DNA of 59,313 bases, the filler included, from Candidatus Lindowbacteria bacterium RIFCSPLOWO2_12_FULL_62_27 (GTDB lineage: Bacteria > Lindowbacteria > 2-12-FULL-62-27), in NCBI GenBank assembly GCA_001784175.1. It is 4 parts of 4 records of this genome, joined end to end, with 100 filler letters (N's around TTAATTAATTAA, not from the genome) between each part and the next. Parts side by side here need not be neighbours in the genome. Positions count along the whole stretch, not along the records: positions 47,395 to 59,313 come from MFPR01000039.1; 3 more parts are not named here. The stretch is one strand, 5' to 3'. Under the pieces are notes generated by a model. The model saw only the letters and a list, made by a program, of their open reading frames with translations. It did not search any database and was not told where the DNA came from. Shown here in pieces: positions 15,754 to 56,347 of this stretch. The translations under genes and the position numbers were made by a program. Each line of letters starts with the position of its first letter. Within the stretch, counting starts at the first letter, position 1.

Positions 15754-15853
15754 NNNNNNNNNNNNNNNNNNNNNNNNNNNNNNNNNNNNNNNNNNNNTTA
15801 ATTAATTAANNNNNNNNNNNNNNNNNNNNNNNNNNNNNNNNNNNNNNNNNNNN
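15754..15853. other. Artificial contig spacer
   Basis: N-run surrounding TTAATTAATTAA (stops in all six frames), 100 nt, identical at three places. Confidence 0.97.
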
Positions 15854-29328: not shown

Positions 29329-29428
29329 NNNNNNNNNNNNNNNNNNNNNNNNNNNNNNNNNNNNNNNNNNNNTTAATTAATTAANNNNNNNNNNNNNNNN
29401 NNNNNNNNNNNNNNNNNNNNNNNNNNNN
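29329..29428. other. Artificial contig spacer
   Basis: Same N/TTAATTAATTAA linker. Confidence 0.97.
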
Positions 29429-41400: not shown

Positions 41401-44400
41401 ACTCGGGCGCGGGATTTCAAGTCCGGTCGTGCGCGAGCAATAGCTTCTCAGGCAACACGGCCGATTCGAATGCGTCGAACGGCATGGAACTGGCATCGAG
41501 CACGGCCAATTTGGTGAAAGGCAATCGCATCGCCGGCAATCAGCAGGACGGCGTCTTGTTGGATTCTTCCTCGCTCAACGTATTTTCGCAGAACGATATC
41601 TCCTCAAACGCCGGGTATCAGGTGTACGTCACCGACGGCTCGGAATCGAATTGGTTTGCCAGAAACAACATCTTGCCTGGAGGCACATTCCCCGACAGCG
41701 CCGTGCTGAACACCAGCGGCAACGCGCAGGATTTTCAACGGAACTGGTGGGGCACGACGGATGAGTTCATCATCGAGTTGAGGCTAATCGACACATCCGG
41801 CTCGAATCTCGTCCAATTCTCGCCGTACGGCCTCGGCGTTGTGGATACATCGCTCGCCGGCGACTCGCTCGCGCCCTCGTCGCCGACCGGCGCGTCGGCG
41901 AACGGGGGGACGCCCGGACAGGTAACGGTGACGTGGTCGGATCCGGTTGTCGATGAGTACGGCGGCGGTTTGTCGGACTTGGCCGGGATCAAGATATACC
42001 GTTTGGTGGATTCGTTCGACACGCCGAACTGGGCGAATTTGCCGGTGAAATATGTCGCGGCGGCGGTTGGTTCGTGGGTCGACACGGACGTGATTGCGGG
42101 ACACACCTATCGTTACCGTCTCACGGCCTATGACGGCGCGGCGTTCATCAACGAGTCGTTCTTCAGCGACAGCGTGGGCGCGAGCGCGCTGAACCACGCG
42201 CCGTACATCGCGCCGGCCATAGCGAACCAGATGGACTCCGAGGACACGTCGCCGTGGAGTATCGCCCTGTCGTCATACGCCGGCGACACGGACGGCGACC
42301 CGCTGACGTGGAGCGTGACGGGCGGCGGGACGGTCGTGTCGGCGAGCGTGACCGGCGGGGAAACGCTGGACATCACGCCCACCGCGAACGCGTATGGCGT
42401 CGATAACCTGACGGTTTATTTGACGGACGGACAGGACACGGCATCGCAGGTCGTGTCCGTCACTCTGACATCGGTGAACGACGCGCCCGTTGCCGACGCC
42501 GGGTCGGACACTGCGATCGCGGCCGGCGCCACCGCCTATCTGACGGGTTCGGGATCGAGCGATGTCGAGGGGGCCGTCACTTATCTCTGGACACAGCTTG
42601 CCGGGCCGGCGATGACGCTGTCTCCGGATTCAGTGACGGCCGACGTATCGTTTGTTTCGGACACAGCCTATCTCGGCGATTATATTTTTCAACTGACGGT
42701 GGGCGACGGGATCGACACATCGGCCGACACGGTCGTGATCTCGGCCGGAAACGTGGCGCCGGTTGCCGATGCCGGGTCGGAGACGGTGTCTGTGACGCAC
42801 CCGGACACGGTGAATCTCAACGGCGGCGCCTCGTATGATTCGAACGGCGACACGCTTTACTATCTCTGGACGATCGTCTCGGGTCCGACGTCGCCGGCCA
42901 TCAGCGGCGCGGATTCGGTGGCCGCAAGTTTTGTCGCCGATTCTGTCGGCGTTTACGTCGTCACGCTGGAGGTATTCGACGGCACGGACACCACGACGGA
43001 CACGCTGGATGTGACGGCGTTGAACACCGCGCCGACGGCCAACGCCGGACCGGACACGTCGGTTACGGCCGGCGCCACCGCGCAGATTTTTGGGAGCGCG
43101 TCGAGCGACCCGAACGGCGACATGATCTCGTATTCATGGACGCAGACCGGCGGGCCGTCGGTGGAGTTGTCGGATTCGTTCGCCGCCAATCCGACATTTG
43201 TGCCGGTGATTGCCGCCACATATTATTTTGATCTGGCCGCGAGCGACGGATTTGACAGTGCGACGGATCAGGTGATGGTGACGGTGACTGCGGGCGCGCC
43301 GGCGGTGATGGAGAAGTCTGTCGACACGCACATTCTGGCGGACACGTATGAACAGGCTGTGCTGGCCGTCCATGTGCTGGACGCGAACGGCAACTGCGTC
43401 CCGAGTGAGGCGGTAACATTTGAAGTCACGTATCCGTCGACCGGCAACGACGCCGGGATTTCCCCTGCAGCGGCCTACACAGACGGCTCCGGCATCGCGC
43501 AGACGACGGTGTATTTGTCGTCGGCGACGGCGAGCAGTTTCTACCGCGTCCGGGCGAGCGTGTCGGGATTGACCCAGGACTTCTACGTTTACAACAACAA
43601 ACTTCATTTCGCGGCCCAAGTCTCGGCCGGCAACAATCGGGGATGGAAGATGTGGTCATACAACGGCGTGCCGGCAGCGACGACGGTGGCAGACGCCATC
43701 ACGCCTTATCTGTCCGACGCCGACATCTACGAGTGGCAGGCGGGGACGAATGAAAACACGAGCTTGGCCGGCGCGAGCGGCACGCATTATTACGCGCCGT
43801 CGGTGATCGAACGCGGGCGTGCGTACTGGATCAAGAGCAACGCGGGCGGGACGCTGCGCATCACGCCGGGGTTGACCAGCCCGTCAGAGACGGTGGCTGT
43901 GAGCCTGATCGCAGGCTGGAACCAAGTCGGGACCGGCCAGTTCTTCTTCACCGACTGGGATAAGTCCGTGCGGTTTTTCCGGCCGACCGATTCGGAACAC
44001 CTTGATACGCTGACGCCCCAGCAGGCGGAAGATTCCGGACTCATCCAGAATGCGGCCTACTGGTGGTCGGAGGACGACAGCACGTACTACTGGGGCCCGG
44101 ACACGGCGATGTATCCGCAGGTCCAGATGAAGCCGATGGCGGGATTCTGGCTGCTCGTGAATTCCGCCGTCGAGATGCTGATCATGCCCATCCCGGCCGA
44201 GCCGCAGGACTCGGTGGAGATATTGAATCAGGCGCCTGCATATCGGGCAGACAAGGGGACGAGCTACGCTCGGAGACAAGGGGACAAGGGGCGAACCCTG
44301 TCGGCGTATTACAAACAAAATCACAAAACGGGCGGCGAAAACGACTGGGCGATCCAGCTCATGGCGAGTGGCGGAGGTTCGAGGGACGTCCAGAATTATG

Positions 44401-45104
44401 TGGGCGTGAAAGCGACCGCGGGGGCAGCCAAGGCGGCGAGCCGTTTCGAGCCGCCGGCGACGGCGGGCGGGTACGTCGCACTAGCAGTCCGACGGTCGGA
44501 CGAACGGACGAACGGACGAACGGAATGGATGGCGGCGCTGTTCTCGGAACCCGTGACCGCGACCGACGCGCGAGACGCGGGCCGCGCGTGGGACGTGATG
44601 GTGGCGTCGGACATCGGCCAGGCCGTCACGCTCGCGTGGGACAACGTCGAGAATCTGCCAAGCGGCTATGAGGCGTATTTGATCGGCGCCCCCAACGGCC
44701 CCGTGAATTTACGCACGGTTTCTTCTGTATCGTTCCCCTTGTCTCAACGTCCCCTTGTCTCCTTGTCGCTCGTGTTGGGCGCGCCCGAATTCCTCGCGCC
44801 GTACTTGGCGGCGCCGCTCTCGAAGGAGAACACGTTCGTGTACCCGAACCCGGGGCCGGACGGGACAACGGGGAACATGACGTTCGCGTACAACCTGGGC
44901 GCGGCGGGCGACGTCAAGATCAAGATATTCGACGCGAGCGGGCGGCTCGTGCGCGAGCTGACCGGCACTGGCGCGGCGGGCGCGAACACCGTCGTGTGGG
45001 ACACGACCAACCGTCACGGCCAGAAGGTCGGCTCGGGCGTGTACATCTACAAGATCGAAAGCGGCGGCGACAAGCTCGTCGATAAATTGGCAATCGTTCG
45101 ATGA
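29430..45104 (+). CDS. Giant (>5200 aa) surface protein: Kelch-like start, ~7 beta-helix/FN3 modules, 7 FG-GAP repeats, PKD-like and Ig domains, FlgD-Ig/T9SS-like C-terminus; 5' truncated
   Basis: The frame is open from the contig edge (TNFWRYSISGNTW...). Motifs include WGDYDNDG, APVADAGSD/PTANAGPD and a C-terminal YPNP...KIKIFDASGRLVREL...WD...GSGVYIYKI. Confidence 0.9.
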   Translation, partial: TNFWRYSISGNTWETKAATPAGVSYGGALVYPGTGDTLYALGGNGGNFWAYTLPGPYPGPNWYVNDTSTSGDSYTSAVGSDTNEGSASAPFRTIIAAMAAASEGDTIYIDAGIYDSYTWVSATETAGVNIDKDSITLIGKDSGSTIIDPPGASSISTMYGIYADTQVGLTIKNLGVTGAYDGIHFYNVDSSTIESDSASSNGNYGIYLRVNSDTNTIKNNTASSNSRGIWLDASSNNTVTNNTAGSNSNEGIVLTSTSNNNTVTNNTASSNSSAGIWHGSSSNNTVTNNTANSNTNDGIYLQSSTNNTVTNNTASSNSRYGIWLDVTSNNNTVTNNTASSNSTFGIYLAASSNNNAVTGNTANSNLQHGIVLDASSNNRVIQNEVRLNTRYQVYIDNASSSDTVQKNNIEPSGTNPDSGVYNGSTIAANKFTVTRNWWNSTDTARIKQMIYQKSNGDSVIWQPFRLGQVDTTAFADTTAPDAPDTVAVTPSDTSLIVSWSAVTALEEANGGAVGLSGYRVYRSKVKDTSSWVKVAQTATGVTRWQDTDVVIGSPYYYRVTAFDTATFENESFFSDSQPSDSAMFTTTVNWYVNDTSTTGDSFTTAAGSDTASGKGTVAAPFKTIPRAMQFATAGDTIWVDAGLYDSYVKVSASETAGVYITVDSLTLIGKDSGATVIDPPGDSAVANLYGIYADTQTGLTIKNLGVTGARVGIYFMNVDMSTVSGDSASSCADHGILLRNGSDTNTVTSNTASSNSDRGIFLFSSSNNNTVTSNTAISNSTSGITLESNSNNNTVSNNTAISNKQNGIHMNSISNNTVSNNTASSNLSYGIYLSASANNSTVSNNTAISNGSSGIYLYSNSNNTVSNNTADSNSSYGITLDLSSNNTVVQNDVRNNTTYQIYIVGTSSSDTVQKNNIVPSATNPDSGVFNGSTVATNKFTFTRNWWNSTDTARIKQMIYQASNGDSVIWQPFRLGQVDTTAGADTTAPDAPDTVAVAPSDTILIVSWSSVTGLEEANGGAVGLAGYRVYRSPVISDTSLWTEIAQVGSTADGWQDTSPFVGKVYYYRVTAFDGASPYINESFYSDSIPGDSAPYTSQTDWYVNDGSTAGDSYTYATGSDMSGNGSKQTPFASIPKAMSVATAGDTIWIDAGLYDSFVTVNGTETVGVNIDKDSITLIGADSNATVIDPPGAAGTAGLYGIYADTQVGLTIKNLGVTGAYQGIHFYNVDQSTVAGDSVCSNGNYGIYLRINSDNNTLNGNSAASNSSFGIYLLSCSNNTVTNNTASSNSNYGIYLNAASNNMLTGNTASSNSPNGIYLYFASNNTLSGNTASSNAYTGIYVDGSSNNTLTNNTAASNGTYGVWLYGASTDNLFAQNTLDSNGAYQIYIDGSGGAGAADTFLKNNIRPSPDNPDSGVYNNTGNTFDFTRNWWGTTDSVAIGRMMTDTGAVNRIVYSPWRLGIVDTTAGADTVAPNDPDTVAASAAAGAGTVLVTWSAVTANEDGDAGAAGVAQYRVYRAGVADTSSWTQVGTPTGTGFTDSGMTIGATYYYRVTARDGAAFPNESYYSDSVVSATPSGWTNAAEPMGANAGVYIISSIQWGDYDNDGDLDLAVSGQDGGTNNRLIIYRNDGGGSFTNVAEPMGANAGVRQGSIQWGDYDNDGRLDLAVSGSDGTNYRLIIYRNDGGGSFTNVAEPMGANAGVRQGSIQWGDYDNDGRLDLAVSGVDGGANKRLIIYRNDGGGSFTNVAEPMGANAGVYYSSIQWGDYDNDGRLDLAVSGQDGGANYRFIIYRNGGGGSFTNVSEPMGANAGVRQGSIQWGDYDNDADLDLAVSGLDGGANRRLIIYRNDGGGSFTNVAEPMGANAGVQDGSIQWGDYDNDGRLDLAVSGAIDGGTNKRLIIYRNDGGGSFTNAAEPMGANAGVYAGSIQWSDYDNDGDLDLAVSGNDGTNKRLIIYRSDAIAPPNVRPNTPAINAPKGASVAQGDTVTFRWTKVTGDTTPDTGMTYNLRVGTASDKADIFAADTNSADSVGNAILGNVQNDTSAELVRSLTVGQTYYWSVQAVDQGMMRSAWATEETFTITLVPNTSGVWYVNDTSIVGDSWTTAIGYDTAAGNGTASNPYRTITYALSQALSGDTIYIDAGLYAETVVIDTDNIALIGKDSTATVIDPPGSDTGIYASGKSYLLIRSIGVTGAYDGIVFNNVDYSRLDADSAGGNSNYGVVLRNGSDTNTIVNGIFNSNASRGVVLWASYNDTVQTCVAASNSGVGIGVFSSGGGHTFTGNTTNSNTTAGIQIGAGIGGNLVKNNTITTSPNMGIYILNAPNNTIIGNIVKGAQPGIEVSASRNTIRNNFISQNSNGAGVYINGIADTNIVEQNDIAGNETGVMVILQARNNVIQKNNITGNTWELINRGGLAQTTGRNWFGSADSATIAAKISDTASAWQPWRLSRVDTSAGADTTAPDAPDTVAVTPSDTSLIVTWQGVSALEEPNGGAVGLSGYRIYRSPVISDTSLWTQIAQVGSTADGWQDTSPFVGKVYYYRVTAFDAASPYINESFYSDSIPGDSAPYTSQTDWYVNDGSTAGDSYTYATGSDISGNGSKQTPFASIPKAMTAATAGDTIWIDAGLYDSYVVISATETAGVNIDKDSITLIGKDSASTIIDPPGANSTSGLYGIYADTQVGLLIKNLGLTGAYDGIHFVNVDQVTLSGDSFSYNGRHGVILLNGADTNSVTGNAIDSNGSDGLELSAGAGCTISGNQVNFNGAAGILLSANASNNTVSNNAARQNATHGIHLNPADSNTISGNTLESNPTGIYLQTSHNNMISNNIADSNTNGIYLHQGSNLNTVSGNSANANAAVAGIMVDGGTNDTIINNTANSNSQDGIFINASTAITITGNTVQSNLINGIDAAGGNTGLLIADNIARSNTQHGIYLSASADLTARNNFVRFNAQAGILLEFAESIVISQNDVSGNDTGIWITGDASNNLILKNNISGNTVSNLYNQSGVAQTLARNWWGTSDEVTIAEKIADPSGSVWRPYRLELVDTAAGADTVAPESPSSVTLDTSTPGQITLTWVNPTINEDSDLGTVGFAGLNIFRLVNQPDSSNWSDGIYVVRQTTALETTWIDTDVTGGNTYYYRLTSKDTAPFVNESFAMDTYWATAAVAYSGPSWYVNDTSTSGDSYTSAIGDDTTGAGSAGAPYATITKALLMAKSGDTIYVDPGAYTAPVVIDTDNLTLVGADNSLAVIDVGASGDGISATGRTGLSIQNIGVVNALNGVLFNQVTNSTISTAYIFGCSTNGIRLTNGSDTNTLIGNTAFSCPNGIDLEASAFNTLTYNSVSTNSAINIHLLGASNNTLSNNYADGGSGDGIYLDSGSNNNTLETNSAGGNTGSGIVIAGSSYNNIYGNIADTNGAQGVYLQANSTGNTINSNSVAGNATGIYAAPNADSNIIAANAALSNTSFGIYLSGCTGNTVSGNTADYNTSYGIWLSACANTALNGNEAASNSDYGILLGGGSMNNAVSGNVSMLNATVGIYLAGSSNNTIVDNAIRANTTNGVEFSASSDNNILMNNGITANGMDGVEIGNSSNNIMVQNLIASNTQYQIFWYGTSSANLISKNNISYAPGNPPLSAYIAPTAAPAVIDLTRNWWGSTDTAEILAMTVYQGTNGDTLVFTPFRIGVVDTTAGADTVAPESPETVAADAPVSAGYVRITWSAVTANEDGDAGAADVSSYRIYRSLTGDTSDWVEAIGTAAGDNFIDTSVALGTTYYYRVTAVDTATTPNESFYSDSIVSATPPMYDGPAWFVNDTSAAGDSYTSASGSDGTGDGSAGAPFRTIAKALDMAASGETIYIDAGYYTETAVIDTDDITISGVDSGATVISAGSTGDPVIHAQNCANVRIEKLGVRNGYSGLRLDNVNGAYIEGVEAKDNQWFGVAISGGTNHTLVYISATGTETAGVYIDNTSGDSIQNCYSSSNGTNGFELWNSVGSMWSGNTASNNSGAGFQVRSCASNSFSGNTADSNASNGMELASSTANLVKGNRIAGNQQDGVLLDSSSLNVFSQNDISSNAGYQVYVTDGSESNWFARNNILPGGTFPDSAVLNTSGNAQDFQRNWWGTTDEFIIELRLIDTSGSNLVQFSPYGLGVVDTSLAGDSLAPSSPTGASANGGTPGQVTVTWSDPVVDEYGGGLSDLAGIKIYRLVDSFDTPNWANLPVKYVAAAVGSWVDTDVIAGHTYRYRLTAYDGAAFINESFFSDSVGASALNHAPYIAPAIANQMDSEDTSPWSIALSSYAGDTDGDPLTWSVTGGGTVVSASVTGGETLDITPTANAYGVDNLTVYLTDGQDTASQVVSVTLTSVNDAPVADAGSDTAIAAGATAYLTGSGSSDVEGAVTYLWTQLAGPAMTLSPDSVTADVSFVSDTAYLGDYIFQLTVGDGIDTSADTVVISAGNVAPVADAGSETVSVTHPDTVNLNGGASYDSNGDTLYYLWTIVSGPTSPAISGADSVAASFVADSVGVYVVTLEVFDGTDTTTDTLDVTALNTAPTANAGPDTSVTAGATAQIFGSASSDPNGDMISYSWTQTGGPSVELSDSFAANPTFVPVIAATYYFDLAASDGFDSATDQVMVTVTAGAPAVMEKSVDTHILADTYEQAVLAVHVLDANGNCVPSEAVTFEVTYPSTGNDAGISPAAAYTDGSGIAQTTVYLSSATASSFYRVRASVSGLTQDFYVYNNKLHFAAQVSAGNNRGWKMWSYNGVPAATTVADAITPYLSDADIYEWQAGTNENTSLAGASGTHYYAPSVIERGRAYWIKSNAGGTLRITPGLTSPSETVAVSLIAGWNQVGTGQFFFTDWDKSVRFFRPTDSEHLDTLTPQQAEDSGLIQNAAYWWSEDDSTYYWGPDTAMYPQVQMKPMAGFWLLVNSAVEMLIMPIPAEPQDSVEILNQAPAYRADKGTSYARRQGDKGRTLSAYYKQNHKTGGENDWAIQLMASGGGSRDVQNYVGVKATAGAAKAASRFEPPATAGGYVALAVRRSDERTNGRTEWMAALFSEPVTATDARDAGRAWDVMVASDIGQAVTLAWDNVENLPSGYEAYLIGAPNGPVNLRTVSSVSFPLSQRPLVSLSLVLGAPEFLAPYLAAPLSKENTFVYPNPGPDGTTGNMTFAYNLGAAGDVKIKIFDASGRLVRELTGTGAAGANTVVWDTTNRHGQKVGSGVYIYKIESGGDKLVDKLAIVR
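32380..37300 (+). repeat. Intragenic ~500-bp near-identical duplication (~32380-32890 and ~36790-37300)
   Basis: Both encode YRSPVISDTSLWTxIAQVGSTADGWQDTSPFVGKVYYYRVTAFD...PYTSQTDWYVNDGSTAGDSYTYATGSD with few nucleotide changes. Confidence 0.85.
34158..35293 (+). repeat. Seven ~165-bp FG-GAP/VCBS tandem repeats (predicted 7-bladed propeller)
   Basis: TNxxEPMGANAGV-var-SIQWGDYDNDGxLDLAVSG-var-RLIIYRNDGGGSF x7, nearly identical at the DNA level. Confidence 0.92.
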
Positions 45105-46730: not shown

Positions 46731-46809
46731 AATTCGCCTTAAAAGGCGAATTTATCTCTGAAAATACATCTTCTTCTTCGATTGACTTTCTCCGGCCTCA
46801 GGCCACAAT
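46731..46809 (+). promoter_or_regulatory. Palindromic operator-like site plus possible promoter
   Basis: AATTCGCCTT-aa-AAGGCGAATT (46731-46752); TTGACT-16 nt-CACAAT (46782-46809). Confidence 0.45.
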
Positions 46810-46880
46810 TGTCCGGTGTGGGGAGAGCGCTCGCGCGGCGCCCATCCCCTGACGGCGGGGTTGGTGGAGGGAATTCAAAG

Positions 46881-47294
46881 ATGTCGATGGTGGTCAAGAG
46901 GATCTTGCGATTGGCCGGGGTTGCCGCGTTGTTGCATTACTGCGTTCTCACTTTCCCGGCTCCGGCTTGGGCCGCGGGGGACACGTGGATCACACGGTCG
47001 AGTATCCCCAGCGGCGCGTATAACGGCGCAGGTCTTGTGTACCCCGGTTCGGGCGACACCCTATACACGTTCGCCGGTAACAGCACGAATCTATTCTACG
47101 GGTATTCCATCACCGGGAATTCGTGGACCGCCATGCCAAACGCTCCGGCCGGCGTCGACGAGGGCGGCGCGATGGTGTATCCCGGATCGGGCGACACGCT
47201 CTACGCCATGATCAACAATGCGACGAACCGCATGTTCACGTATTCCATATCAAGTGGAACGTGGGACACGAAGGCGGCCACGCCGTTCGCGGGG
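46881..47294 (+). CDS. Secreted Kelch-like repeat protein, N-terminal part only
   Basis: SD GGAGG, signal peptide (..PAPAWA|A), and repeats GxxVYPGSGDTLY...YSIxxxxW matching the start of the 29430 gene. Confidence 0.8.
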
Positions 47295-47394
47295 NNNNNN
47301 NNNNNNNNNNNNNNNNNNNNNNNNNNNNNNNNNNNNNNTTAATTAATTAANNNNNNNNNNNNNNNNNNNNNNNNNNNNNNNNNNNNNNNNNNNN
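47295..47394. other. Artificial contig spacer
   Basis: Same N/TTAATTAATTAA linker. Confidence 0.97.
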
Positions 47395-47395
47395 C

Positions 47396-47716
47396 GAGCC
47401 GACGACGACGGAGACGCTGAAGTTCACGGGACTGCGCGAGGACAAGAAGGCCTACATCCCACCGTCCGAGCCGACAACGACGGAGACGCTCAAGTTCACG
47501 GGCCTGCGCGAGGAAAAGAAAGCCTACGACCCACCGAGCGGTCCGACGACGACGGAGCCGCTCAAATTCACGGGACTGCGCGAGGATGAAAAACCATATA
47601 TCCCGCCGGCCGAGCCGGTGACGCCGAAAGTACAACCCCTGTCTCTGACCCTGACTCCGGAAGAGGGCAAGGGCGGCGTCCTGTCCACTTCCGCGACCGT
47701 GACTTCCGATGAATAA
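47396..47716 (+). CDS. C-terminal end of a gene with 24-aa (72-bp) tandem repeats [24 protein letters not shown]
   Basis: Open frame from the contig edge to TAA 47714-47716, three repeat copies, overlapping the next ATG. Confidence 0.7.
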
Positions 47717-50700
47717 CGCCCGTCCGTTGCCTTTGAAACGATTGACGGTAATCGGTCGGTCAAGGGCAGAACCCATTACCACGAATGGGTTCGAATGTCA
47801 CAAATATCCACCATACGGTAAAGGTTTTATTCGTTTAATTCGTGTTAATGGTTTTCCGGCGTTTACCGATGGGTTCCGATTGACGCTGTCTGTTGTCTCT
47901 TGCCTGTTGCCTCTAATATTTTTTCAAACCCTCTCGGCCCACGCGATGCAGATTTTTGTCAAGACCGCAGCAGGCAAGACGATCACGCTCGACGTCGAGC
48001 CGAGCGACGGCATCGAGAACGTCAAGGCGAAAATTCAGGATAAGGAGGGAACACCTCCGACGGAACAGAGCCTGAAATTCGCCGGCAAACAACTCGACGA
48101 CGGTCGGACGCTCTCCGACTACAACATCCAAAAAGAATCGACGTTGCATCTCGTCGTGAAGAAACAATCGTCCGCGGAGGCCAAAATTTCGTTCTGGGCA
48201 TACTCGGGCGCCACCGTGCGCGCGACCGTGGCCGGCGGCGTTGCCCCGTACAAGTACTCGATCCAAACCAACAACTCCGGCGCGTCAGTTTCATCGGACG
48301 GTCTCTACACCGCCGGTTCGACGGCCGGCGTCACCGACATCATCCGCGTCACTGACGACAACGGAACATATCTCGAAGGCAAGGTCGAGGTGCGCGCCAT
48401 CCCTAAACCCTACATCCCGCCCAGCGAGCCGACGACGACCGACCCGCTCAAATTCACGGGACTGCGGACGGAAATCGCGAAGCTCTCAATCGAGCCGCCC
48501 TACATCACTCCGGATGCGCCGACGGCCGGCGACCTCTTGACGTGCAATCTCAATGGGTTCACGGGCAATCCTGTCGAATTCAAATATGAATGGTTGATCA
48601 CCGGCCAGGGAATGGTTGACAAACGGCTTTCGGAAATGAAAATGCCCGACAGTCAAAAAAATGTGTTTCAGACGCAAGTGGGCTGGCCGTCGGTAGAATT
48701 TAAATGCGAGGTCACCGCGATCGGCAGTGACGATGCGAAAGTCACCGCCGTCTCACCACCCGTCACTCCGAAGGCCTCTACCGAACTCGCGATCAACCCC
48801 AAACAGACAAAAGTAAAGACCGGGGGCATGTCCAACTTCAACGCGCTGAACGGCACGGGCAAATTGACGTTTTCAATATCGGAGAATAACTCGGGCGCGT
48901 CGTTACAAGAGATGGTGGGGAATGCTTCAGCAACCTCCTACAAAGCCGGCGCCACCGCGAATGTCACCGATCGCGTGCGCGTCACCGACGAGGCCGGCAA
49001 ATTCGCCGAGGCCACGGTGGATGTCTACATCGGGGTTACCATCTCCCCGGCGGTGGGAGAAGCCAAGCCAGGCGGCGAGTTTCAGTTCACGAGTTCTGGC
49101 GGCGTCGGCAAGAAGACGTTTTCCATTTTATCGGATCCGGCCACCGGGCAGTATGGAACAACAAACACCAAGTCCGGCGCGTCGATCGACCCCGTGACCG
49201 GTCTCTTCAAATCCGGCGCGAGCGCTTCGTTCGAAAATGTCAAGGTTCAGGACGAGGCATACGATCAGGCGTATGCGAGCGCGCAGGTCAAGGAACCGGC
49301 GGTCCCGCCTGCAATGACCGGGAAGCCCGTCATCACGCCGGGTAAACCGTTCGTCGGCGAAAAGCTGACCTGCAGCGATGGAGACTGGACCGGAAATCCT
49401 TACTCCTACGCGTATGACTGGAAAAAACCATCAGGCCTGATCCAGCATGGAGGGAATACCTACATAACCGTCGACGTGGACTTCGGGCAGGAGATCACTT
49501 GCGAGGTCACGGCAACCAACCAATACGGAAACGTATCGGCGCTTTCCGACCCTGTCGTTCCCGGGGTCAAGGAGGGTCTGCCGGCCCTTGAGGGCGATCC
49601 GGTCGTCACGCCGGAGAAGCCGTTCGTGGGGAATACCCTCACCTGCGACCAAGGTAAATGGAAAGGCGACCCTACCGATTACTATTATCAGTGGTTCAAG
49701 GATAATTGGAAAGATCCGCAACAGACGAGTCAGACATACACAACGACGTCCGGCGATAAGAATAAAAGTTTCTACTGCGAGGTGGTCGCGGAGAATGGCG
49801 TCGGGAAGTCGCTTGCCGCCAAGTCCAACACGGTCAAGGTGACCGCCGGCCCGCCGGCCAACTATAAGTCGCCGACCGTCGACCCGGGACTTCGCAAGGA
49901 CGACGGGAAGTTCACATGTATGAATGGAAGCTGGACCGAATACCCCACGTCCTACACCTACCGCTGGCTGATCGACGGCGTGGAGGTCGAGGCCGCGACG
50001 GAGCAGAACTACGCGCCGACGCCGTCGGACGCGAACAAGCCTATCACCTGCGAGGTAACGGCGGTCAACAACACCGGCACGTCCGAGCCCGCGCTATCGT
50101 CCAATCACGGCATCTTCCAGCTCTCTACGCCGAAGGGCCAACCGAAGATCACCCCTGCGAACGGCACATTCGGCGATGTCTTTACCTGCGACAAGTCTTC
50201 GTGGACTTTCAAGCCCGACACATTCCTTTACCAGTGGCGCAGGAACGGCGCGGACATTCCCGCCGCCACCTCGACGACCTACCAGGCGGGGGATGAAGAC
50301 ATGAAACAGAGCCTCACCTGCGTGGTCACGGCGTATCGGCCGGGCCTTTCCGAACCGGGAGTGGGAACCTCGGATCCGGTGACTCCGAATTGGTTCCAAC
50401 CGAACCAACTCGGCGCGCCGACGATCAGCCCGACGTCGTTGATGGTCGGTGAGATGCTCACCTGCGATCCGGGACAATGGAGCGGCAAGCCGGCGATCAC
50501 GTATCAGTGGTACAGACAAGGATGGGAACAGATCGCGAACGCGACGGAAACGACTTATGTCACGGCAGAGAAGGATGCATGGCAGGAAATCCACTGTCAG
50601 GTAGCCGCGACCAATCCCTCAGGTGTCGCAACGGGGACGTCGAATAAGGTCAAACCGAGCGCTCCGGCGCCCATGAATACCGATTCTCCAACACTGACTC

Positions 50701-53700
50701 CTATCGAGCCGAAAGTCGGCGAGAAGCTCACCTGCGATAAAGGCGCGTGGACCAACGCAGCCTCCTTCACATACAAGTGGTACATCAACAACGTGGAGTC
50801 GTCGTGGCGGGCAAAGAACGAGTATCTCCAGACGTCAAGTTCCAGCGGCGACGCGGGCAAGGAGTTTTACTGCGTCGTGACGGGAAAATCGGCCGATCCA
50901 AACGGGCCGACGGCTTCCGCCCGTTCGAACACTGTCATTCCGAAAGAGCCTCCGCCGGTCGCGTCGACAAGTCCGTCGATTTATCCGAAGGAACCCTTCA
51001 TTGGAGATGCTCTGACCTGCAACCCGGGAAGCTGGAGTCCATCTCCGGATAAAGCCGTTTACCAGTGGCGGCGGGACGGCGAGGACATCGAGGGCGCGAC
51101 GGGCAAAGCCGAACTCGGCATGTACGCGACTCCACCGAAGTATACGACTGTTCTGGCGGACGGCTTGAAAAAGATCACCTGCGTCATCTTCGCGTATAAT
51201 AAGTCCGGCGATTTCGCGACTGGCGTTTCGAACGAGGTTGTTCCCAAATTCAAGGCGCCGGTGAACACGATTCGCCCCGTGTCTTCTGCCAGTAAGACCA
51301 CGAACAACGGGATTCCGAAGGGCGCGACCCTGACGTGCGATACCGGCGTGTGGAAGAATTATCCCACGGATTACTCCTACCAGTGGATGAGAGGGAGCAC
51401 GAAAGACCAGACGAAAGGGACGAAGATTCCGGACGCGACATCCAAGGATTACGCGGTAGCGCCGGCAGACGGCGGCATGTACGTCTGGTGCGTGGTCACG
51501 GCCACGAACTCAGCCGGATCGGCCGAGGCCCCTTCTTCGACTGTTTTCCTCATCATTAAGTTCCCCCCGGCCGGCGGCGTACCCACCCTTTCGCCGGGCA
51601 AGGCGCTTGTTGGGGAAAAACTCACCTGCGACGCGGGTACATGGACGCCAACGCCCTATTCTTATACACATACATGGTATCGGGACGGCAAGGAATTCTG
51701 GGCGCCAAGCGGCAGCGGCGCTCCACTCGACCCCAAGGCGCAGTATCAGACCGTCGCCACGGACGTGGGCAAGATATTCACCTGTGAAGTGACCGCAAAG
51801 GAAAAGAACGGCGTCGCCTCGGACCCGGCCACGTCAAACGAGGCCACGGTGATCTGGCCGACGATCGATACATCCGCAATAACCGTGAAAGTCACGCCGG
51901 CCGCTCTCGTAGAGGATGCGCATCCGGTCGAACCCCAGCGTCTCGATTGCGCTCCGCAAGACTTTAAGATCGACCTGGATAATTTCACATACAAATATTC
52001 CTGGTTCCGGGGTGGAGACAAGGTTTCGGACAAAACCGGTAAAGAATATGTGACAAGCATCGATGACGCGGGCAAGGATATGACCTGCGCCATGTCGGTG
52101 TCGAACAAGGGCGACGAGTTATTGGGATCGTTCCCGTCCGTCAATTCCGTGACCGTGACGCTTCGAAAGCCGGTAATCACGTCGCTCGAAATCCCCATTG
52201 ACAAGGAAAGCATGACCGGCAAGCTGACCTGTTCAGGGAAGTGGAAGGGGCAAGCGGACGAGGTCAAATACTGGTGGGAGGTCGACGGCGTCGCGATTCC
52301 GGGCGCGAATTCGAACGTCTACCAGATGGCGGCGGCGGACAACAAGAAAGGACTCACCTGCGCGCTCAAAGTCTCCAACAAGGCCGGCGATGACAGCAAG
52401 AAAAGCACGCTCACGATCCCCGAAGTGACGGCAACCCTGCGGCCGACCAGCCCGGCCTTTAAGGGAAAGACGGAGGAACTGGCGAATTACACCTTCCCAC
52501 CGGGCAGCGTGTTCGACTGCAAAGCCGGCGGTTGGACTGAGGGTACCAAGTACGCATACAAGTGGCTGATAGACGGGGTCGAAATTCCGGGCGCGAAGGA
52601 CGCCTCATACACGGCGCCCATGGATCCGGCGAGTCAGAAAATCAGCTGCAAAATCACCGGCGACGATTTCTTCGGCGAACGCTCGGCGCTGAGCAATCCT
52701 GTGGCCGTCCTGGATACCACGTTCAGACAAACTGAATTTACGCCCGAAAAACCGAAGTATGACGGAACCATTAAGCAAGAAGTATTCGTGGGAGGCCTAG
52801 AACATAATGCGGCCACGCAGAATGTGCGGCTCAAGTGCAATCCCTCCAAGGAGTGGGACGCAATCAGCGCCGACAATTGGACGCTTACATGGTATAAGGA
52901 CAACGCCGTTCATCAGCGTAATACCAAGAAAGGACAAGCGGGAAACGATCCGGCGATCACTTACAATGCTTTGTCGCCGAGTAATGGGTGGTATTTGGGG
53001 CTGGCCGAGGCCGACGTTGGCCATACGTTCACATGTGAATTCACCGCCACGGAAGGTGGCACTGCAAAGACCGGCCGCTCCGCGCCATTCATGGCCACGG
53101 CGGGGGCGAAAGCTTTTTATATTGACCAGGGAGAACTGTTCGCACCGGAACCGCGGAAAGATCCGAATCTCACGTTCGCTGACCAACAGGTCATGGGGGG
53201 CAGGAACGAGGCGACCTGCAACGTCGGCACGGGCTGGAGTCCGCCCGCGCCGTTCTCGTATCGAATCACGTGGTACAGAAACGGCGACCCCATCAAGGAG
53301 GAGAATATCGACCTGCCGAAGAACAGTGTGAAGTACACGCCGGAATATTCTTTTCCGGACATGCAGCGTATTTCGTGCGAGGTTGTGGCCGCCCGCTATG
53401 CGATGAAGATGAAGGTGTCAGTGACGTCGGGCAGTCTAATCTACGATGTCGGCGAATCCCCAAAAGATCCGACCGTCTGGGTCTTGACCAATCCCAATGG
53501 GAATACAGAAACGGTGAAAAAGAGCGACCTGCCGTCCGGCTATGAGTTGTACATCGATTATGACGCATCTGCCCTCGTCGAACGACGCCCCTCGTCGAAT
53601 CATCTGATCGTGATGTACAATGGCGTGCTCCAACCCGTGGATGCCGCAGATACTTGGGGCGTGGCAACCGGCGCCGCCCCGACGTCCACAGGCGATGTCA

Positions 53701-54038
53701 CGCTTTACACCGCCGGCAAGATATCGGGATCGATGACGTTCACCCGGCGCGTAGACAATGCAAACGTTATCAAAGCCGGCGGATCGGACTTTCCCAATAA
53801 CACAACAAGCATGACGTCCAGCGCCACGGCTTATGAAATTATATCGACTACCAAAGGCCTTACTCTTCTTCTGACGCCGACGACCACCAAGTCCTCCGTA
53901 AAATTTGCCGTACAAGCGACCTATGCCAACGCGTTTGCCATGAAGTCATACACGATTAACATAGAACTTCGCAAAGAGGGATCCTACATTTCGCTGGACA
54001 AATTCAAGCTGACCATCGATCCCGGGAAGGGAGGATAA
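47709..54038 (+). CDS. Secreted giant protein: signal peptide, ubiquitin domain, ~15 Cys-paired Ig-like repeats
   Basis: Hydrophobic stretch ending LSAHA, then MQIFVKT..., then repeats P...VGExLTCxxGxW...YxW...TY...DxGxxIxCxVTAxN. The true start codon is uncertain. Confidence 0.88.
47946..48173 (+). other. Eukaryote-type ubiquitin domain within the 47709 CDS
   Basis: [70 protein letters not shown]; 60/70 identical to human ubiquitin; the tail is VKKQSS instead of LRLRGG. Confidence 0.97.
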
Positions 54039-54043
54039 TCGTC

Positions 54044-56347
54044 ATGACGGATTTCCCGCGGATTCTGCGCCGGGCGATGTTGCCTCTCCTCTGTCTCTTG
54101 CTTTTGAATACCGCCGCGCGGGCCGACGATGTCGTCGAGGTCGCAAAACCGTCGGCCGCCCGGGAGTCCTACGCGCCGGGCGAGGACGTGACGATCCAAT
54201 CCGAGGTGAAGAACACGAAGGCGTTTCCGATCCTCGTCGTCGCGCGGCTCCGCGTCATCGGGCCGGACGGGACGGAAATCTACAATGAGGAGAAAGACCT
54301 GGGCGAAATCGCCGGCAAGGCCGCCGCGATGGCGTCGTTCACCCTCAAGCTCCCCGCGGATGCCGGGGCCGGCGATTATTCCGCGACATTCGAACTGCGA
54401 AACCCATATTTCGCCACAGCCTCCTACTTCCAGAACAAGGGCAAACCCTTCGTCGTCTTCGAGGTCAAACTGTCGGAAGGCGCGAGGGCCGATCCCATCA
54501 GCGAGGCCAAAAAAATCCTTTCCCGCATGGTCGACGCGATGAACTGGCGCGACATCGACGCCCTCATGGACCCCGTCGCCCGCGGCGCGCGGGTGTCGAT
54601 GAACGGCAAGGCGTCGGGCGCCGGAGATTTCCGGATGGCGCTGTCGTCTGTCCTCCCGTTTCTGTCCGACCTTGTCTGGGACGCGCAGGTGACGCACGGC
54701 ACGATCGATCCGAAAACCGGCGCGGTCCGCCTCCGCGTCCGGTCGACCTATTCGGCCAAACTCGCCGAACCCGTCGGCGTCACGTCGGCTTCGCTGGCCA
54801 AGCCGAAGGACCTGGAATCCGAGCAGAAACGCATCACGGAGGCGTTCAACACGTCGGCGGAGGAGATATATGAGTTCAACCGCGCCGCGGGCGGCCAGTT
54901 GCAGGTCACCGAAATCGTCTCGGCCCTGCCGCTCGACGCCAAACTGCTCGATCGCATCGCCCTCATGGGCGCGGAGTGGGAGGCCAAGGTCGCGGTGTTC
55001 GGGCTGTTTTATTACATGGAGCAAAACGATCTCGGCAAATTCAGCGCGATGATCGACGATGGATTCGTCAACAATGACGACAACGGATTCAAACACAACA
55101 AGGCCGATTTTATCGAGTCCATCAAAGCCGACCTCGACCATCTCACCGCCATCGACCACAACGTCCGCGTCGAGGACATCCAGTTCAGCGCCGGGCATTC
55201 CGCCGCCCGCGTCCCCGTCACATGGGACCGCCGCGCCCGCATCGCCAACACGAGGTCGGAGTGGACCGTCAAGGATCAGAAGACGACCATGACGCTGAAA
55301 TACGACGCCGGCTTCAAACTCGCGCAGATCGAGGGCAAGCCTTTGTTCGGCAACTCGAGCCGGATGACGAGAAAGACGCTGATCGGCGCGGGCGAACTCG
55401 ACGGAACGACGATCACGCTGGCGATCGCGATCAGCGACGCGAGAGAGACGGCCGTCGCGTCGTCGTCCGACTTTCCGGGAAGTGAGTTGACCAACGTCTT
55501 GGCGCCGTCCTCCGGATCGTCGCAAACATTTACCTATACCGGCGCCGTGCAGACCTTCACAGCGACCGCGAACGCCGTGTTTACCATCAAAGCCTGGGGC
55601 GCCGGCGGTGGCGGCGGCGGATGGGACGCCGGCAATGGAGGCGCTGGCGGAGGCGGCGCCTATTCGACGGCAACGGTCACTTTGGCGAAGGGCGATATTA
55701 TTCAGATCTATGTGGCCCAAGGCGGTGACTCGGGGGCCAGTGAAGTCGGCAACATTGGTCTCGGCCCCGTCCTCGGCAACGGGCCGGGCGGATTTGGATA
55801 TGGGACGGGCGGCCGGGGCGGAAACGTCGCCAAATTTGCATCCGGCGGCGGAGGAGGCGGTGGTGGATCGTCCGCGGTTACGAATCAAAGCGGAGCGACG
55901 ATCTATCTGGTTGCGGCCGGCGGCGGCGGCGGCGGTGGCGGGAATTCGGTGGGTGTTTTAAATGGTGGAGCGGGCGGCGCTGGCGGTGTGAGTGGAACGG
56001 CATCCGCCGGCGCAGGTGGAGCGACCGGCGGTTCCGGATCAAAAAATGGAACCAACGGTGACGACAAGGGCGTGGGATTAGACGGCGGCGGCGGTGGCGG
56101 CGGCGGTGGCGGATATACCGCCGGCGGCACGGGCGGCAGCGTGACTGCGGTCGATGATGACGGCGGCGGGGGCGGTGGGGCCGGAGGAAACAGCACCGGC
56201 ACAGTCACGACCGGCAACGGCACAGTGCCCGGCAATTCGGCCGACGCGGATTTGACCGCCCTCGCGGCAGGCGGCACCGGTTCTACCGCAAATGTACCCG
56301 GCAACGCAACCCGCGGCGGCCACGGCCTGGTCAAAATATCATGGTGA
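54044..56347 (+). CDS. Secreted protein with an Ig-like domain, NTF2/SnoaL-like domains and a C-terminal glycine-rich domain
   Basis: SD GGAGG, signal peptide (AARA|D), and a glycine-rich domain FTYTGAVQTF...KAWGAGGGGG...VAQGG...GGGGGGSS...LVAAGGGGGG...GGHGLVKISW. Confidence 0.85.
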   Translation: MTDFPRILRRAMLPLLCLLLLNTAARADDVVEVAKPSAARESYAPGEDVTIQSEVKNTKAFPILVVARLRVIGPDGTEIYNEEKDLGEIAGKAAAMASFTLKLPADAGAGDYSATFELRNPYFATASYFQNKGKPFVVFEVKLSEGARADPISEAKKILSRMVDAMNWRDIDALMDPVARGARVSMNGKASGAGDFRMALSSVLPFLSDLVWDAQVTHGTIDPKTGAVRLRVRSTYSAKLAEPVGVTSASLAKPKDLESEQKRITEAFNTSAEEIYEFNRAAGGQLQVTEIVSALPLDAKLLDRIALMGAEWEAKVAVFGLFYYMEQNDLGKFSAMIDDGFVNNDDNGFKHNKADFIESIKADLDHLTAIDHNVRVEDIQFSAGHSAARVPVTWDRRARIANTRSEWTVKDQKTTMTLKYDAGFKLAQIEGKPLFGNSSRMTRKTLIGAGELDGTTITLAIAISDARETAVASSSDFPGSELTNVLAPSSGSSQTFTYTGAVQTFTATANAVFTIKAWGAGGGGGGWDAGNGGAGGGGAYSTATVTLAKGDIIQIYVAQGGDSGASEVGNIGLGPVLGNGPGGFGYGTGGRGGNVAKFASGGGGGGGGSSAVTNQSGATIYLVAAGGGGGGGGNSVGVLNGGAGGAGGVSGTASAGAGGATGGSGSKNGTNGDDKGVGLDGGGGGGGGGGYTAGGTGGSVTAVDDDGGGGGGAGGNSTGTVTTGNGTVPGNSADADLTALAAGGTGSTANVPGNATRGGHGLVKISW

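Follow-up and report, generated by a model that had tools for sequence, protein, structure and literature searches.

The gene described here is a real bacterial gene. Its product starts with a ubiquitin domain, which is followed by 18 domains of beta-sandwich type and, at the C-terminus, by an orphan domain. It lies on the last contig of a 59,313-nucleotide stretch of DNA (the window), in which four contigs are joined by N44-TTAATTAATTAA-N44 linkers and true genomic context is confined to this 11.9-kb contig. The open reading frame (47709-54038, + strand) runs for 2,109 codons without interruption. On balance, we favour the reading that the protein is exported as a ubiquitin-capped fibre, that the exposed ubiquitin is its working part, and that the binding face of this ubiquitin has been retargeted.

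In the scheme we propose, a Sec-type signal peptide would likely be cleaved between AHA and M, and the mature ubiquitin, beginning with its own Met1, would cap the free N-terminus of a long fibre outside the cell. Ig domains are roughly 4 nm long, so the fibre could reach a length on the order of 70 nm. Most likely, it would act as a module for contacting or recognising other cells, be they eukaryotic grazers, hosts, or other microbes. Ubiquitin may thus serve as a scaffold with a retargeted binding face, more a natural counterpart of engineered binders than a mimic. The gene would belong to a prokaryotic set that combines a signal peptide, a ubiquitin starting at Met1 and lacking Gly-Gly, and a surface-attachment or stalk module. 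Because ubiquitin is the sole autotransporter passenger in some members of this set, we favour the exposed ubiquitin itself as the working part. The features of the contig are:

47395-47715, +, 3' part of the upstream gene, truncated at the contig boundary (stop TAA 47713-47715)
47716-47879, +, probable non-coding leader, codons 3-57 of the longest ORF (low GC, 55-nt repeat)
47880-47945, +, signal-peptide-like stretch, 22 codons from TTG (hydrophobic core, AxA rule)
47946-48173, +, ubiquitin domain, residues 1-76 from Met1 (PF00240, PDB matches, GC3 0.72)
48186-48425, +, Big-like beta-sandwich domain 1 (internal repeat search)
48426-48488, +, linker common to the tail of the upstream gene (motif search)
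48489-48791, +, Ig-type repeat 1, LTC..G.W....Y.W motif (repeat profile, E 1.8e-13)
48813-49328, +, Big-like domains 2 and 3 (E 2e-09 and 0.0039 to domain 1)
49317-53456, +, fourteen tandem Ig-type repeats (2-15), about 90-100 residues each
53457-54038, +, C-terminal domain of 193 residues, not assigned to any family, ending at stop TAA 54036-54038
54030-54034, +, Shine-Dalgarno GGAGG of the downstream gene (read from the sequence)
54044-56347, +, downstream gene, 767 aa

The ubiquitin domain

Among solved structures in the PDB, human ubiquitin chains match the 76 residues encoded from 47946 (E about 4e-35). Pfam PF00240 matches residues 82-152 of the ORF (E 2.3e-24, 85.4 bits), far above the cut-off of 25.4 in the HMMER check that the initial annotation had proposed. 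That annotation had described a domain 60/70 identical to human ubiquitin, lacking the GG tail and continuing in frame into Ig-like repeats that span some 2,000 residues, and each point was borne out. The exact count was reproduced over residues 1-70 of an animal-type copy (60/76 overall, 79%), the domain ends in VVKKQSS where animal ubiquitin has VLRLRGG, and the repeats were found in the same open frame. Met1 and all seven lysines are kept. Residues 71-76 (VKKQSS) run on into the stalk and do not provide the Gly-Gly used for activation and conjugation; the domain is eukaryote-derived and, because GG is absent, cannot be conjugated. The 79% identity to solved ubiquitin points to a beta-grasp fold; single-sequence AlphaFold2 gave a mean pLDDT of 43 for the N-terminal 235 residues.

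Relative to animal ubiquitin, the substitutions are L8A, T9A, E16D, T22G, I36T, D39T, Q40E, R42S and I44K within residues 1-44, and E51D, L71V, R72K, L73K, R74Q, G75S and G76S within residues 51-76. The ten that fall within residues 1-70 all lie outside fourteen positions that we take to form the hydrophobic core and that are unchanged in this copy. Seven of them (positions 8, 9, 36, 39, 40, 42 and 44) presumably lie in or adjoin the two faces read by eukaryotic partners. It is this pattern, a spared core with seven changes at or near partner-read faces, that suggests a retargeted face. The residues L8/I44/V70, which we take to be the hydrophobic recognition patch of canonical ubiquitin, are A8, K44 and V70 here. 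Because L8 and I44 are altered to A and K, mimicry of canonical ubiquitin recognition is disfavoured for this copy.

The PDB matches to the domain include engineered ubiquitin binders, Affilin (8pf0_A, 8peq_J). This match was counted in favour of retargeting, as was the replacement of both L8 and I44, residues that are mostly kept in the class described below. Counted against the main reading is that relaxed constraint, and not retargeting, could account for the changes in the patches: few copies have diverged as far as this one, and it forms the longest tip on the tree.

The stalk and the C-terminus

The 1,954 residues after ubiquitin comprise 15 Ig-type domains, three Big-like domains and the orphan C-terminal domain. 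Pfam recognizes Ig_2 (E 1e-26) and Ig_3 (E 3e-08) in the whole protein, and an Ig-type repeat profile built from this protein gave 12 matches with E values of 1e-29 to 1e-37 and three weaker ones. Big-like domain 1 has the motif GG.APY.YS...NSGAS...G.YTAG..G.TD.I.VTD, and relatives of the module were found in giant Myxococcota/Oligoflexia-type proteins. With tandem Ig-like domains behind a predicted signal peptide, the protein would count as a bacterial Ig-like surface protein. A search with the stalk yielded 73 relatives (P0126-P0198) with 24-49% identity to residues 77-560. These are secreted giants with Kelch, RCC1 or Big_1 heads, and PF00240 was detected in 0/73.

When the C-terminal 193 residues were compared with 1.84 billion representatives using HMMER, two weak relatives were found besides the domain itself. 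The best ESM Atlas score for this domain was 0.82, within the stated noise range, and AlphaFold2 without an alignment gave a mean pLDDT of 43 for the C-terminal 312 residues. Neither Pfam nor NCBIfam, loose thresholds included, detected a C-terminal anchor or sorting tag, and no transmembrane tail was found in the protein. The earlier picture of ubiquitin as the distal domain of a surface stalk was therefore too firm: the Ig-type repeats are there, but no cell anchor was found and the position at the tip is presumed. The lack of an anchor, sorting tag and transmembrane tail was counted against the main reading, in which attachment and orientation are presumed.

A class of putatively secreted prokaryotic ubiquitins

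Canonical-type ubiquitin had been called very rare in bacteria, a statement that did not survive a scan of prokaryote species genomes. We detected at least 373 ubiquitin-coding stretches among at least 599 pattern matches, and a signal peptide ends exactly at the ubiquitin Met1 in 51 of the best 80 loci. The class was defined from these best 80 of at least 373 loci; adding this copy gives 52 signal-peptide loci, and GG is absent in 46 of them. The ubiquitin-coding loci include large isolate contigs (Dyella, Saccharibacillus, Cohnella, and the complete genome of Pseudomonas danubii), and the class spans Pseudomonadota, Bacillota, Verrucomicrobiota, Planctomycetota, Bacteroidota, Actinomycetota, Myxococcota and methanogens. 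It is widespread and apparently undescribed: the literature that we searched on bacterial ubiquitin covers BfUbb and BoUbb only and contains nothing on the class.

The 41 class tails that were scanned include 11 with an autotransporter beta-domain, five with SLH, three with IPTL-CTERM, two with a T9SS tail and two with an OMP barrel. In L003 the tail is hardly more than the autotransporter barrel, and in L051 ubiquitin is the sole recognised domain ahead of the barrel. L024 has an SLH tail, L038 (Methanothrix) has SdrD_B/DUF11 repeats, and the stalks of L038 and L061 are at least 1,400 residues long. The copy under study has the longest tail among the 81 loci examined. It shares with the class the absence of GG and a predicted signal peptide leading to Met1; a recognisable C-terminal anchor (autotransporter barrel, SLH, CTERM or T9SS) was not found in it. 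Identity to animal ubiquitin across the class is 60-69 of 70, and just two of the 51 other signal-peptide copies score 60/70 or lower, which places this copy among the most diverged. Of those 51, 44 retain L8 and 46 retain I44, and the A8/K44 combination occurs in this copy only among the 52.

A phylogeny, which the initial annotation had advised, was built from 81 ubiquitin domains; 50 of its 70 inner branches lack resolution, this copy is the longest tip, and no donor can be named from the tree. L061, a weak tree neighbour, was considered as a stalk relative and rejected because its stalk is unrelated. Comparison of four-fold sites with the 51 other signal-peptide copies gave 392 identities in 1,171, where 0.30 is expected from composition. 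This result excludes recent shared DNA with other copies; it cannot date residence in bacteria because eukaryotic donors differ at these sites too. Among the 89 nearest ORFs of the 51 loci, no Pfam family was present in more than four. Neighbour sequence clusters in the class are lineage-limited, and the neighbours in this window fall in none of them. This want of a neighbour common to the class was counted against the main reading.

The class bears on a further explanation, in which ubiquitin is an inert, stable, fast-folding N-terminal cap that acts as an exoprotease shield or folding aid and has no binding partner. Ubiquitin fusions are a standard means of stabilising recombinant proteins, and such a role would suit a copy that has lost the canonical recognition patches and kept the fourteen presumed core positions. 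We nevertheless consider it unlikely. An autotransporter barrel is the partner in 11 of the 41 tails, and L003 contains nothing else of size, so that ubiquitin there is cargo rather than helper. Conservation across the class, both overall and at L8 and I44, exceeds the needs of fold stability, and the stalk relatives manage without a ubiquitin cap. Extending the preferred reading of a displayed, working ubiquitin to the whole class is more tentative: bacteria of many phyla and some archaea may deliberately display genuine eukaryotic ubiquitin that cannot be conjugated, using whatever anchors their envelopes provide, the present copy being one with a rebuilt face that acts as a binder on a fibre of about 70 nm.

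Predicted signal peptide and start codon

Codons 1-57 of the ORF (47709-47879) have a GC3 of 0.40 vs 0.72 in the gene and are probably not coding. The GC content of the leader is 0.41-0.49, and a short 55-nt repeat within it (47780-47834) was seen at about twice the depth and with different flanks in four runs. No Shine-Dalgarno sequence precedes any candidate start, and a scan of 47395-48200 for sigma-70-like promoters returned 0 sites. None of the seven sequencing runs listed for the sequence is from RNA. TTG 47880 is the sole canonical start close to the signal peptide and gives M-T-L-S, without a charged n-region. Two observations made here were counted against the main reading: a charged n-region with a canonical start and a Shine-Dalgarno sequence are both lacking, and three of the four cluster records that cover the N-terminus start at Met1 (47946), hence without a signal peptide; the fourth starts at ATG 47709.

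The stretch has an h-region of 13 residues and the c-region QTLSAHA, with AxA at −3/−1, and cleavage is predicted directly before the ubiquitin Met1, in agreement with the signal peptide proposed initially. A crude rule (small residues at −1 and −3 plus a hydrophobic core) passes before Met1, and among 835 other ATGs in the window with 24 open codons upstream it passes before only four, or one when the strict AxA form is used. The same rule passes at 51 of the 80 best prokaryote ubiquitin loci vs 0 of 80 viral loci.

Translation might instead begin at Met1 (ATG 47946), in which case the protein would be cytoplasmic or exit by another route and the AxA site would be the relic of a decayed leader. 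The three records that begin there fit this proposal, as do the status of this ATG as the sole strong start codon nearby, the poor TTG alternative and the divergence of this copy, which is in keeping with decay. We judge it improbable given how rarely a hydrophobic-plus-AxA stretch arises by chance and that the leader is a hallmark of the class. In addition, fifteen Ig-type repeats and secreted neighbours favour an extracellular protein, and the 6-kb frame is unbroken.

Neighbouring genes and a possible antibacterial role

The tail of the upstream gene contains three tandem copies of a 24-residue unit beginning EPTTTE(T/P). Apart from three occurrences in this gene and a single one in the ubiquitin gene (48429), the window lacks the motif PTTT[ED]xLKFTGLR. 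Downstream, GGAGG sits in the last codons of the ubiquitin gene (GKGG and stop), 9 nt before ATG 54044, and the two genes may be co-transcribed with coupled translation. The downstream protein has a signal peptide (…LLLLNTAARA, then DD) and a NEW3-like domain, and its C-terminal half is rich in glycine. This glycine-rich part gave weak PHROGs matches (phrog_7388, E 3e-08; minor tail protein, E 1e-04). The PHROGs search of the neighbour genes gave no sign of the contig being phage. The description of the locus as a tightly spaced bacterial gene cluster had to be abandoned, the window being four concatenated contigs; the Kelch-like fragment taken for a neighbour is on the preceding contig.

Work on ubiquitin homologues of bacteria has so far dealt only with BfUbb from Bacteroides fragilis and BoUbb from B. 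ovatus, two secreted proteins without GG that kill related strains (PMC5705921, PMC11467351, PMC3352274). BfUbb is a free protein whose import needs a SusCD-type transporter, with antibacterial action on a periplasmic PPIase after such import (PMC11467351), and its terminal cysteine has been proposed for a disulphide (PMC3352274). By analogy, the present protein could poison a periplasmic target of competitors, with the stalk used for contact-dependent delivery. This seems highly improbable: BfUbb is free and imported and ends in cysteine, whereas the domain here is tied to 1,954 residues and ends in KKQSS, with no cysteine, and an immunity-like small gene is not evident on the contig.

Authenticity of the gene

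The junction between signal peptide and ubiquitin lies within one 330-nt assembled piece (47805-48134) in four of four runs from four studies, and the junction between ubiquitin and stalk is crossed by pieces beginning at 48114 in three of the four runs (different studies). No differing letters are listed for the junction-crossing pieces. In the protein collection the same protein, which forms its own cluster, was called on five contigs. The gene has no introns and its 6-kb frame is intact. GC3 is 0.72 in both the ubiquitin part and the remaining gene vs 0.74-0.78 in the neighbours, as expected from the initial description of an intron-less gene composed like its neighbours. Tetranucleotide correlations of this contig with the other three are 0.82-0.92, and the background values from 46 loci (maximum 0.80, median 0.53) are all lower. 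In composition it thus agrees with the three remaining contigs, which belong to a Lindowbacteria-like groundwater genome; the linker motif common to the upstream and ubiquitin genes was also counted as a sign that the gene is native to this genome. The closest named relative of a protein on contig 2 is from Candidatus Lindowbacteria (55% identity). The identical GC3 and the repeated identical assembly are in keeping with a domesticated horizontal acquisition of ubiquitin.

None of the window's other large ORFs was hit when the protein was compared with them by BLASTP at E 1e-3, and a search of the whole protein against prokaryote species genomes returned five pattern matches, none related. The N-terminal 330 residues matched mostly eukaryotic polyubiquitins in the protein collection, and the informative match was the protein's own cluster only.

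The genome is a draft bin with contigs breaking in repeats, these samples contain further ubiquitin genes (run X1 has loose ends and a record of tandem ubiquitin) and contaminant polyubiquitin is found on 350-1,100 nt contigs in some prokaryote assemblies. Even so, it is hardly credible that the fusion of ubiquitin with a bacterial repeat protein arose from chimeric assembly or from contamination of eukaryotic or viral origin, because both junctions are bridged across studies and the codon composition of the ubiquitin part is that of the gene, to which the five contigs, the tetranucleotide usage, the lack of introns, the Shine-Dalgarno-coupled gene downstream and the absence of the leader from all 80 viral ubiquitin loci can be added.

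Significance

In the searchable literature, bacterial ubiquitin is a Bacteroides curiosity, and the genome scan points to its recurrence across many phyla. If the display reading is true, these proteins would form a so far undescribed point of contact with eukaryotes, for instance grazers or hosts. With cultured isolates in the class, among them Dyella spp., Saccharibacillus sacchari DSM 19268, Cohnella sp. OV330, Pseudomonas danubii, Ruminococcus albus 8 and Rhodopirellula maiorica, the role of ubiquitin outside cells that have no ubiquitin system is now directly testable. The present copy, with the longest stalk among the 81 loci examined and a probably remodelled binding face, is an extreme case that can discriminate a mimic of eukaryotic ubiquitin from ubiquitin used as a binding scaffold.

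Comparison with known systems

Like BfUbb and BoUbb (PMC3352274, PMC11467351), the protein contains a eukaryote-derived ubiquitin in a bacterium with a signal sequence directly ahead (28 residues in BfUbb, predicted here) and has no C-terminal GG, and ubiquitin-conjugation machinery is not encoded alongside. BfUbb has about 76 residues, is free and is 63% identical to human ubiquitin, whereas this domain is 79% identical (60/76) and fused to 1,954 residues. BfUbb is moreover an imported antibacterial toxin encoded on a low-GC island with a cysteine at its end; the present domain is compositionally native, is tied to repeats and ends without cysteine.

Class members such as L003, L051, L024 and L038 resemble this protein in an N-terminal ubiquitin without GG and, by prediction, a signal peptide leading to Met1. 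They have recognisable anchors or other tail families, whereas this protein has no recognisable anchor and a stalk unrelated to theirs. The giant Ig-repeat fibres P0126-P0198 share with it a signal peptide (predicted here), a head module and a long Big-like/Ig-like run; many of them end in a MYXO-CTERM-type tail and all 73 lack ubiquitin as a head, and this protein is the reverse on both counts.

The 60/70 identity, seven lysines and Met1 are shared with eukaryotic ubiquitin, as found in polyubiquitin and ribosomal fusions. Unlike it, the domain has no GG, is not cleavable from its partner by known rules and is predicted to be exported. Also altered are the L8/I44 and I36 faces and R42/R72, which presumably serve partner and E1 binding in eukaryotic ubiquitin. 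In engineered ubiquitin binders, the randomised residues lie on the beta-sheet face. Similar to Affilin and other ubiquitin variants, this domain appears to have kept the fold and changed surface residues of the beta-sheet face, which in those molecules was done for a new binding site; they are laboratory products, whereas this one is natural.

A ubiquitin domain fused in frame to a giant repeat protein

The longest open reading frame over the feature (47709-54038, + strand, 2,109 codons) matched Pfam family PF00240 at residues 82-152 (E 2.3e-24; 85.4 bits against a cut-off of 25.4), and the rest of the frame matched Ig_2 (E 1e-26) and Ig_3 (E 3e-08). The 76 residues from 47946 matched solved human ubiquitin chains (E ~4e-35). 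Identity to an animal-type ubiquitin copy was 60/70 over residues 1-70, the figure that the initial annotation had given for human ubiquitin, and 60/76 overall. The observation of a near-eukaryotic ubiquitin fused in frame to a giant repeat protein was thereby confirmed. An internal repeat search placed the following domain boundaries, numbered from ubiquitin Met1 (codon at 47946):

Residues 1-76, + strand: ubiquitin
Residues 81-160, 290-368 and 380-461, + strand: three Big-like domains
Residues 161-181, + strand: short linker
Residues 182-282, then 458-1837, + strand: fifteen Ig-type repeats
After the Ig-type repeats, + strand: C-terminal domain of 193 residues belonging to no family

Searches of Pfam, NCBIfam, the atlas and representative sequences found no cell anchor in this protein.

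A chimeric assembly or contamination is a scarcely credible source of the fusion. The initial annotation had proposed read mapping over both domain junctions. We ran this check on assembled pieces, the stretch being present in seven DNA runs from four studies, of which four runs were compared, one per study. The leader/ubiquitin junction was spanned by a 330-nt piece (47805-48134) in 4/4 runs and the ubiquitin/stalk junction by pieces beginning at 48114 in 3/4 (7,019 nt twice, 1,138 nt once), at most three of the four runs being independent because one may be the window's own source. No differing letters were listed for the junction-spanning pieces of these runs, and the fusion protein was called on five contigs. 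The composition is native: GC3 is 0.72 in both the ubiquitin and the rest of the gene and 0.74-0.78 in the neighbours, in keeping with the likeness noted initially. Tetranucleotide correlation of the ubiquitin contig with the other three was 0.82-0.92, whereas the 46 background loci reached at most 0.80 (median 0.53). Those three contigs are plainly bacterial, with sigma-54 activator, SpoIIE phosphatase, kinase and cyclase genes; among its named relatives, the activator is closest to one from Candidatus Lindowbacteria (55% identity). In one compared run, X1, another record from that groundwater sample (compared over 47945-48139) joins a ubiquitin end, LVLRLRGG, plus Ser-Gly to a new MQIF start; it is another organism's tandem ubiquitin gene, which has short exact words in common with the window gene.

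Leader and start codon

Our crude leader rule asked for a small residue at −1, a small or aliphatic one at −3, and a hydropathy maximum over 10 residues of 1.8 or more. The stretch of 22 codons ahead of Met1 (47880-47945) satisfies it, as do 4 of the 835 window ATGs with 24 open codons upstream, a control that falls to 1/835 under a stricter rule demanding AxA and a stronger core. Upstream of the gene, a 55-nt stretch (47780-47834), present once in the window, had about twofold depth and foreign flanks in 4/4 compared runs; one or more other community loci share this short repeat. Codons 1-57 of the long frame contain the 55-nt stretch and are low in GC (0.41-0.49) and GC3 (0.40); we read them as non-coding. 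Near the leader, TTG at 47880 is the sole canonical start, and a leader beginning there lacks a charged n-region. Shine-Dalgarno motifs are absent ahead of 47709, 47880 and 47946, whereas that of the next gene is perfect. The four cluster records that bear the N-terminus start at 47946 (three) or 47709 (one). The leader probably works as a signal peptide, and export of the fusion protein is likely.

True neighbours of the gene

Three linkers, N44-TTAATTAATTAA-N44 (15754-15853, 29329-29428 and 47295-47394), join the four contigs artificially, so adjacency across them is meaningless. The last contig (47395-59313) carries the ubiquitin gene and is the same sequence as a metagenome contig of 11,919 bp (locus L001). 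A giant repeat-protein frame is cut at every linker: 9027-15734 (− strand), 23087-29380, and a Kelch-like gene from 46782. This last gene is not a proven neighbour, because a linker separates it from the ubiquitin gene, and the tightly spaced cluster described initially is not supported. The genes flanking the fusion on its own contig are:

47395-47715, + strand: upstream gene, 3' end only, three tandem units with PTTTExLKFTGLR
54044-56347, + strand: downstream gene, predicted secreted protein of 767 residues

Within the window, PTTTExLKFTGLR has a single further copy, in the linker of the ubiquitin gene. The downstream gene's ribosome-binding site, GGAGG, lies within the last ubiquitin-gene codons, 9 nt before its ATG. 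Its product combines a NEW3-like domain and weak SnoaL-like matches with a long C-terminal half that is rich in glycine and bears a weak likeness to phage tail-associated families (phrog_7388, E 3e-08; minor tail protein, E 1e-04). In a frame further downstream, an internal start resembles a signal peptide and the C-terminal part is rich in strands.

A secreted Kelch-like fragment (46782-47294) forms the end of the previous contig, and a repeat tail (47395-47715) forms the start of the ubiquitin contig. These might be one broken gene, a propeller-headed paralogue of the ubiquitin gene; Kelch-headed giants occur among the stalk's protein relatives (P0132, P0149, P0159, P0160). A 5,202-residue frame (29496-45104) begins directly after a linker and may continue the 2,097-residue LTD/fn3 frame ending at the previous contig's edge.

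A large prokaryotic class of putatively exported ubiquitins

A scan for the ubiquitin domain in one genome per prokaryote species gave at least 599 pattern matches; 373 among the matches listed encode a ubiquitin relative, which contradicts the view that ubiquitin is very rare in bacteria. Among the best 80 loci kept for analysis, 51 satisfied the leader rule, their signal-peptide-like stretch stopping exactly before Met1 (52/81 with the window's contig), and 46 of these 52 lack GG. Loci L004, L013, L033, L035 and L064 appear to be near-misses of the rule. By comparison, 0/80 best viral loci satisfied it and 58/80 kept GG. Large isolate contigs carry best-80 loci in Dyella species, Saccharibacillus, Cohnella, Ruminococcus albus 8, Pseudovibrio, Paracidovorax, Neptunomonas, Rhodopirellula maiorica and Methanothrix, and Pseudomonas danubii carries one in a complete genome. 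Eleven further loci, plant- or animal-type polyubiquitin or fragments on contigs of 350-2,400 nt, were taken as contamination.

Pfam was run on 41 tails that extend 100 residues or more beyond ubiquitin (37 rule-positive loci and four near-misses):

Autotransporter beta-domain: 11/41 tails
SLH: 5/41 tails
fn3: 4/41 tails
IPTL-CTERM: 3/41 tails
T9SS tail: 2/41 tails
OMP barrel: 2/41 tails
Adhesin-type repeats: scattered among the 41 tails

The tail of L003 is essentially an autotransporter barrel alone, and in L051 ubiquitin is the sole recognised domain before the barrel. Such tails point to ubiquitin as putative displayed cargo in many members. No neighbouring gene was conserved across the class (89 nearest frames of 51 loci).

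The gene upstream in L003 (925-3420) is an autotransporter too, with an extended signal peptide (ESPR) and PATR repeats, and the L003 ubiquitin belongs to an autotransporter gene pair. Seven Dyella and Collimonas loci (L008, L009, L014, L058, L063, L069, L078) encode free, predicted-secreted ubiquitins of 73-76 residues, some keeping an intact RLRGG end behind the signal peptide. A related frame of 368-458 residues without a Pfam family lies closely upstream on the same strand (−7 to +62 nt) in L008, L009, L014, L058 and L078, possibly a lineage-specific partner. In L002 and L006, from Methanobacteriota MAGs, roughly 120 residues that include no signal peptide precede ubiquitin and RLRSS or RLRGN follows it; these two appear to be a different, non-exported fusion type.

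The window copy is an extreme member

The window copy has the longest tail after ubiquitin among 81 loci (1,954 residues) and the longest terminal branch in a tree of 81 ubiquitin domains that is otherwise unresolved. Its 60/70 identity to animal ubiquitin is near the bottom of the class, which ranged from 60 to 69 of 70 (median 65), with just 2/51 other members at or below 60/70. The substitutions are L8A, T9A, E16D, T22G, I36T, D39T, Q40E, R42S, I44K and E51D; the whole tail also differs, VLRLRGG having become VVKKQSS, while 7/7 lysines are retained. Ubiquitin-binding domains read the L8/I44/V70 and I36/L71/L73 faces, and R42/R72 contact E1. L8, I36, R42 and I44, kept in 44, 49, 40 and 46 of the 51 other members, are all replaced here, the sole A8/K44 case in the class set. 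In contrast, the hydrophobic core, which we take to comprise positions 3, 5, 13, 15, 17, 23, 26, 30, 43, 50, 56, 61, 67 and 69, is unchanged at 14/14 positions. Altered recognition faces around an intact core argue against simple mimicry of canonical ubiquitin and fit either a relaxed or a retargeted binding face.

The stalk is unrelated to the other class tails. It is related to 73 giant secreted proteins (24-49% identity) with Kelch, RCC1 or Big_1 heads and, in many, MYXO-CTERM tails; PF00240 was found in 0/73. The simplest history would be that a ubiquitin unit took the head position of an older fibre gene. After Sec export and cleavage between AHA and Met1, the repeat domains would form an extended fibre, with ubiquitin at its free N-terminus serving as a contact module. 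The initial interpretation, a ubiquitin domesticated at the tip of a surface stalk, is supported in part: the ubiquitin-stalk fusion and native composition speak for it, no anchor for a surface stalk was found, and the gene cluster and rarity are not borne out.

Comparison with known bacterial ubiquitins

Full-text searches of openly accessible articles found nothing on signal peptide-ubiquitin-anchor proteins, and the Bacteroides work stood alone. BfUbb is 63% identical to human ubiquitin, with a 28-residue signal sequence, a terminal cysteine and no GG (PMC3352274). Two further papers assign it a role in intraspecies antagonism (PMC5705921) and describe BoUbb with its importer ButCD (PMC11467351). 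The window protein is a variant of the BfUbb kind and stands at the extreme of a large class that is apparently undescribed.
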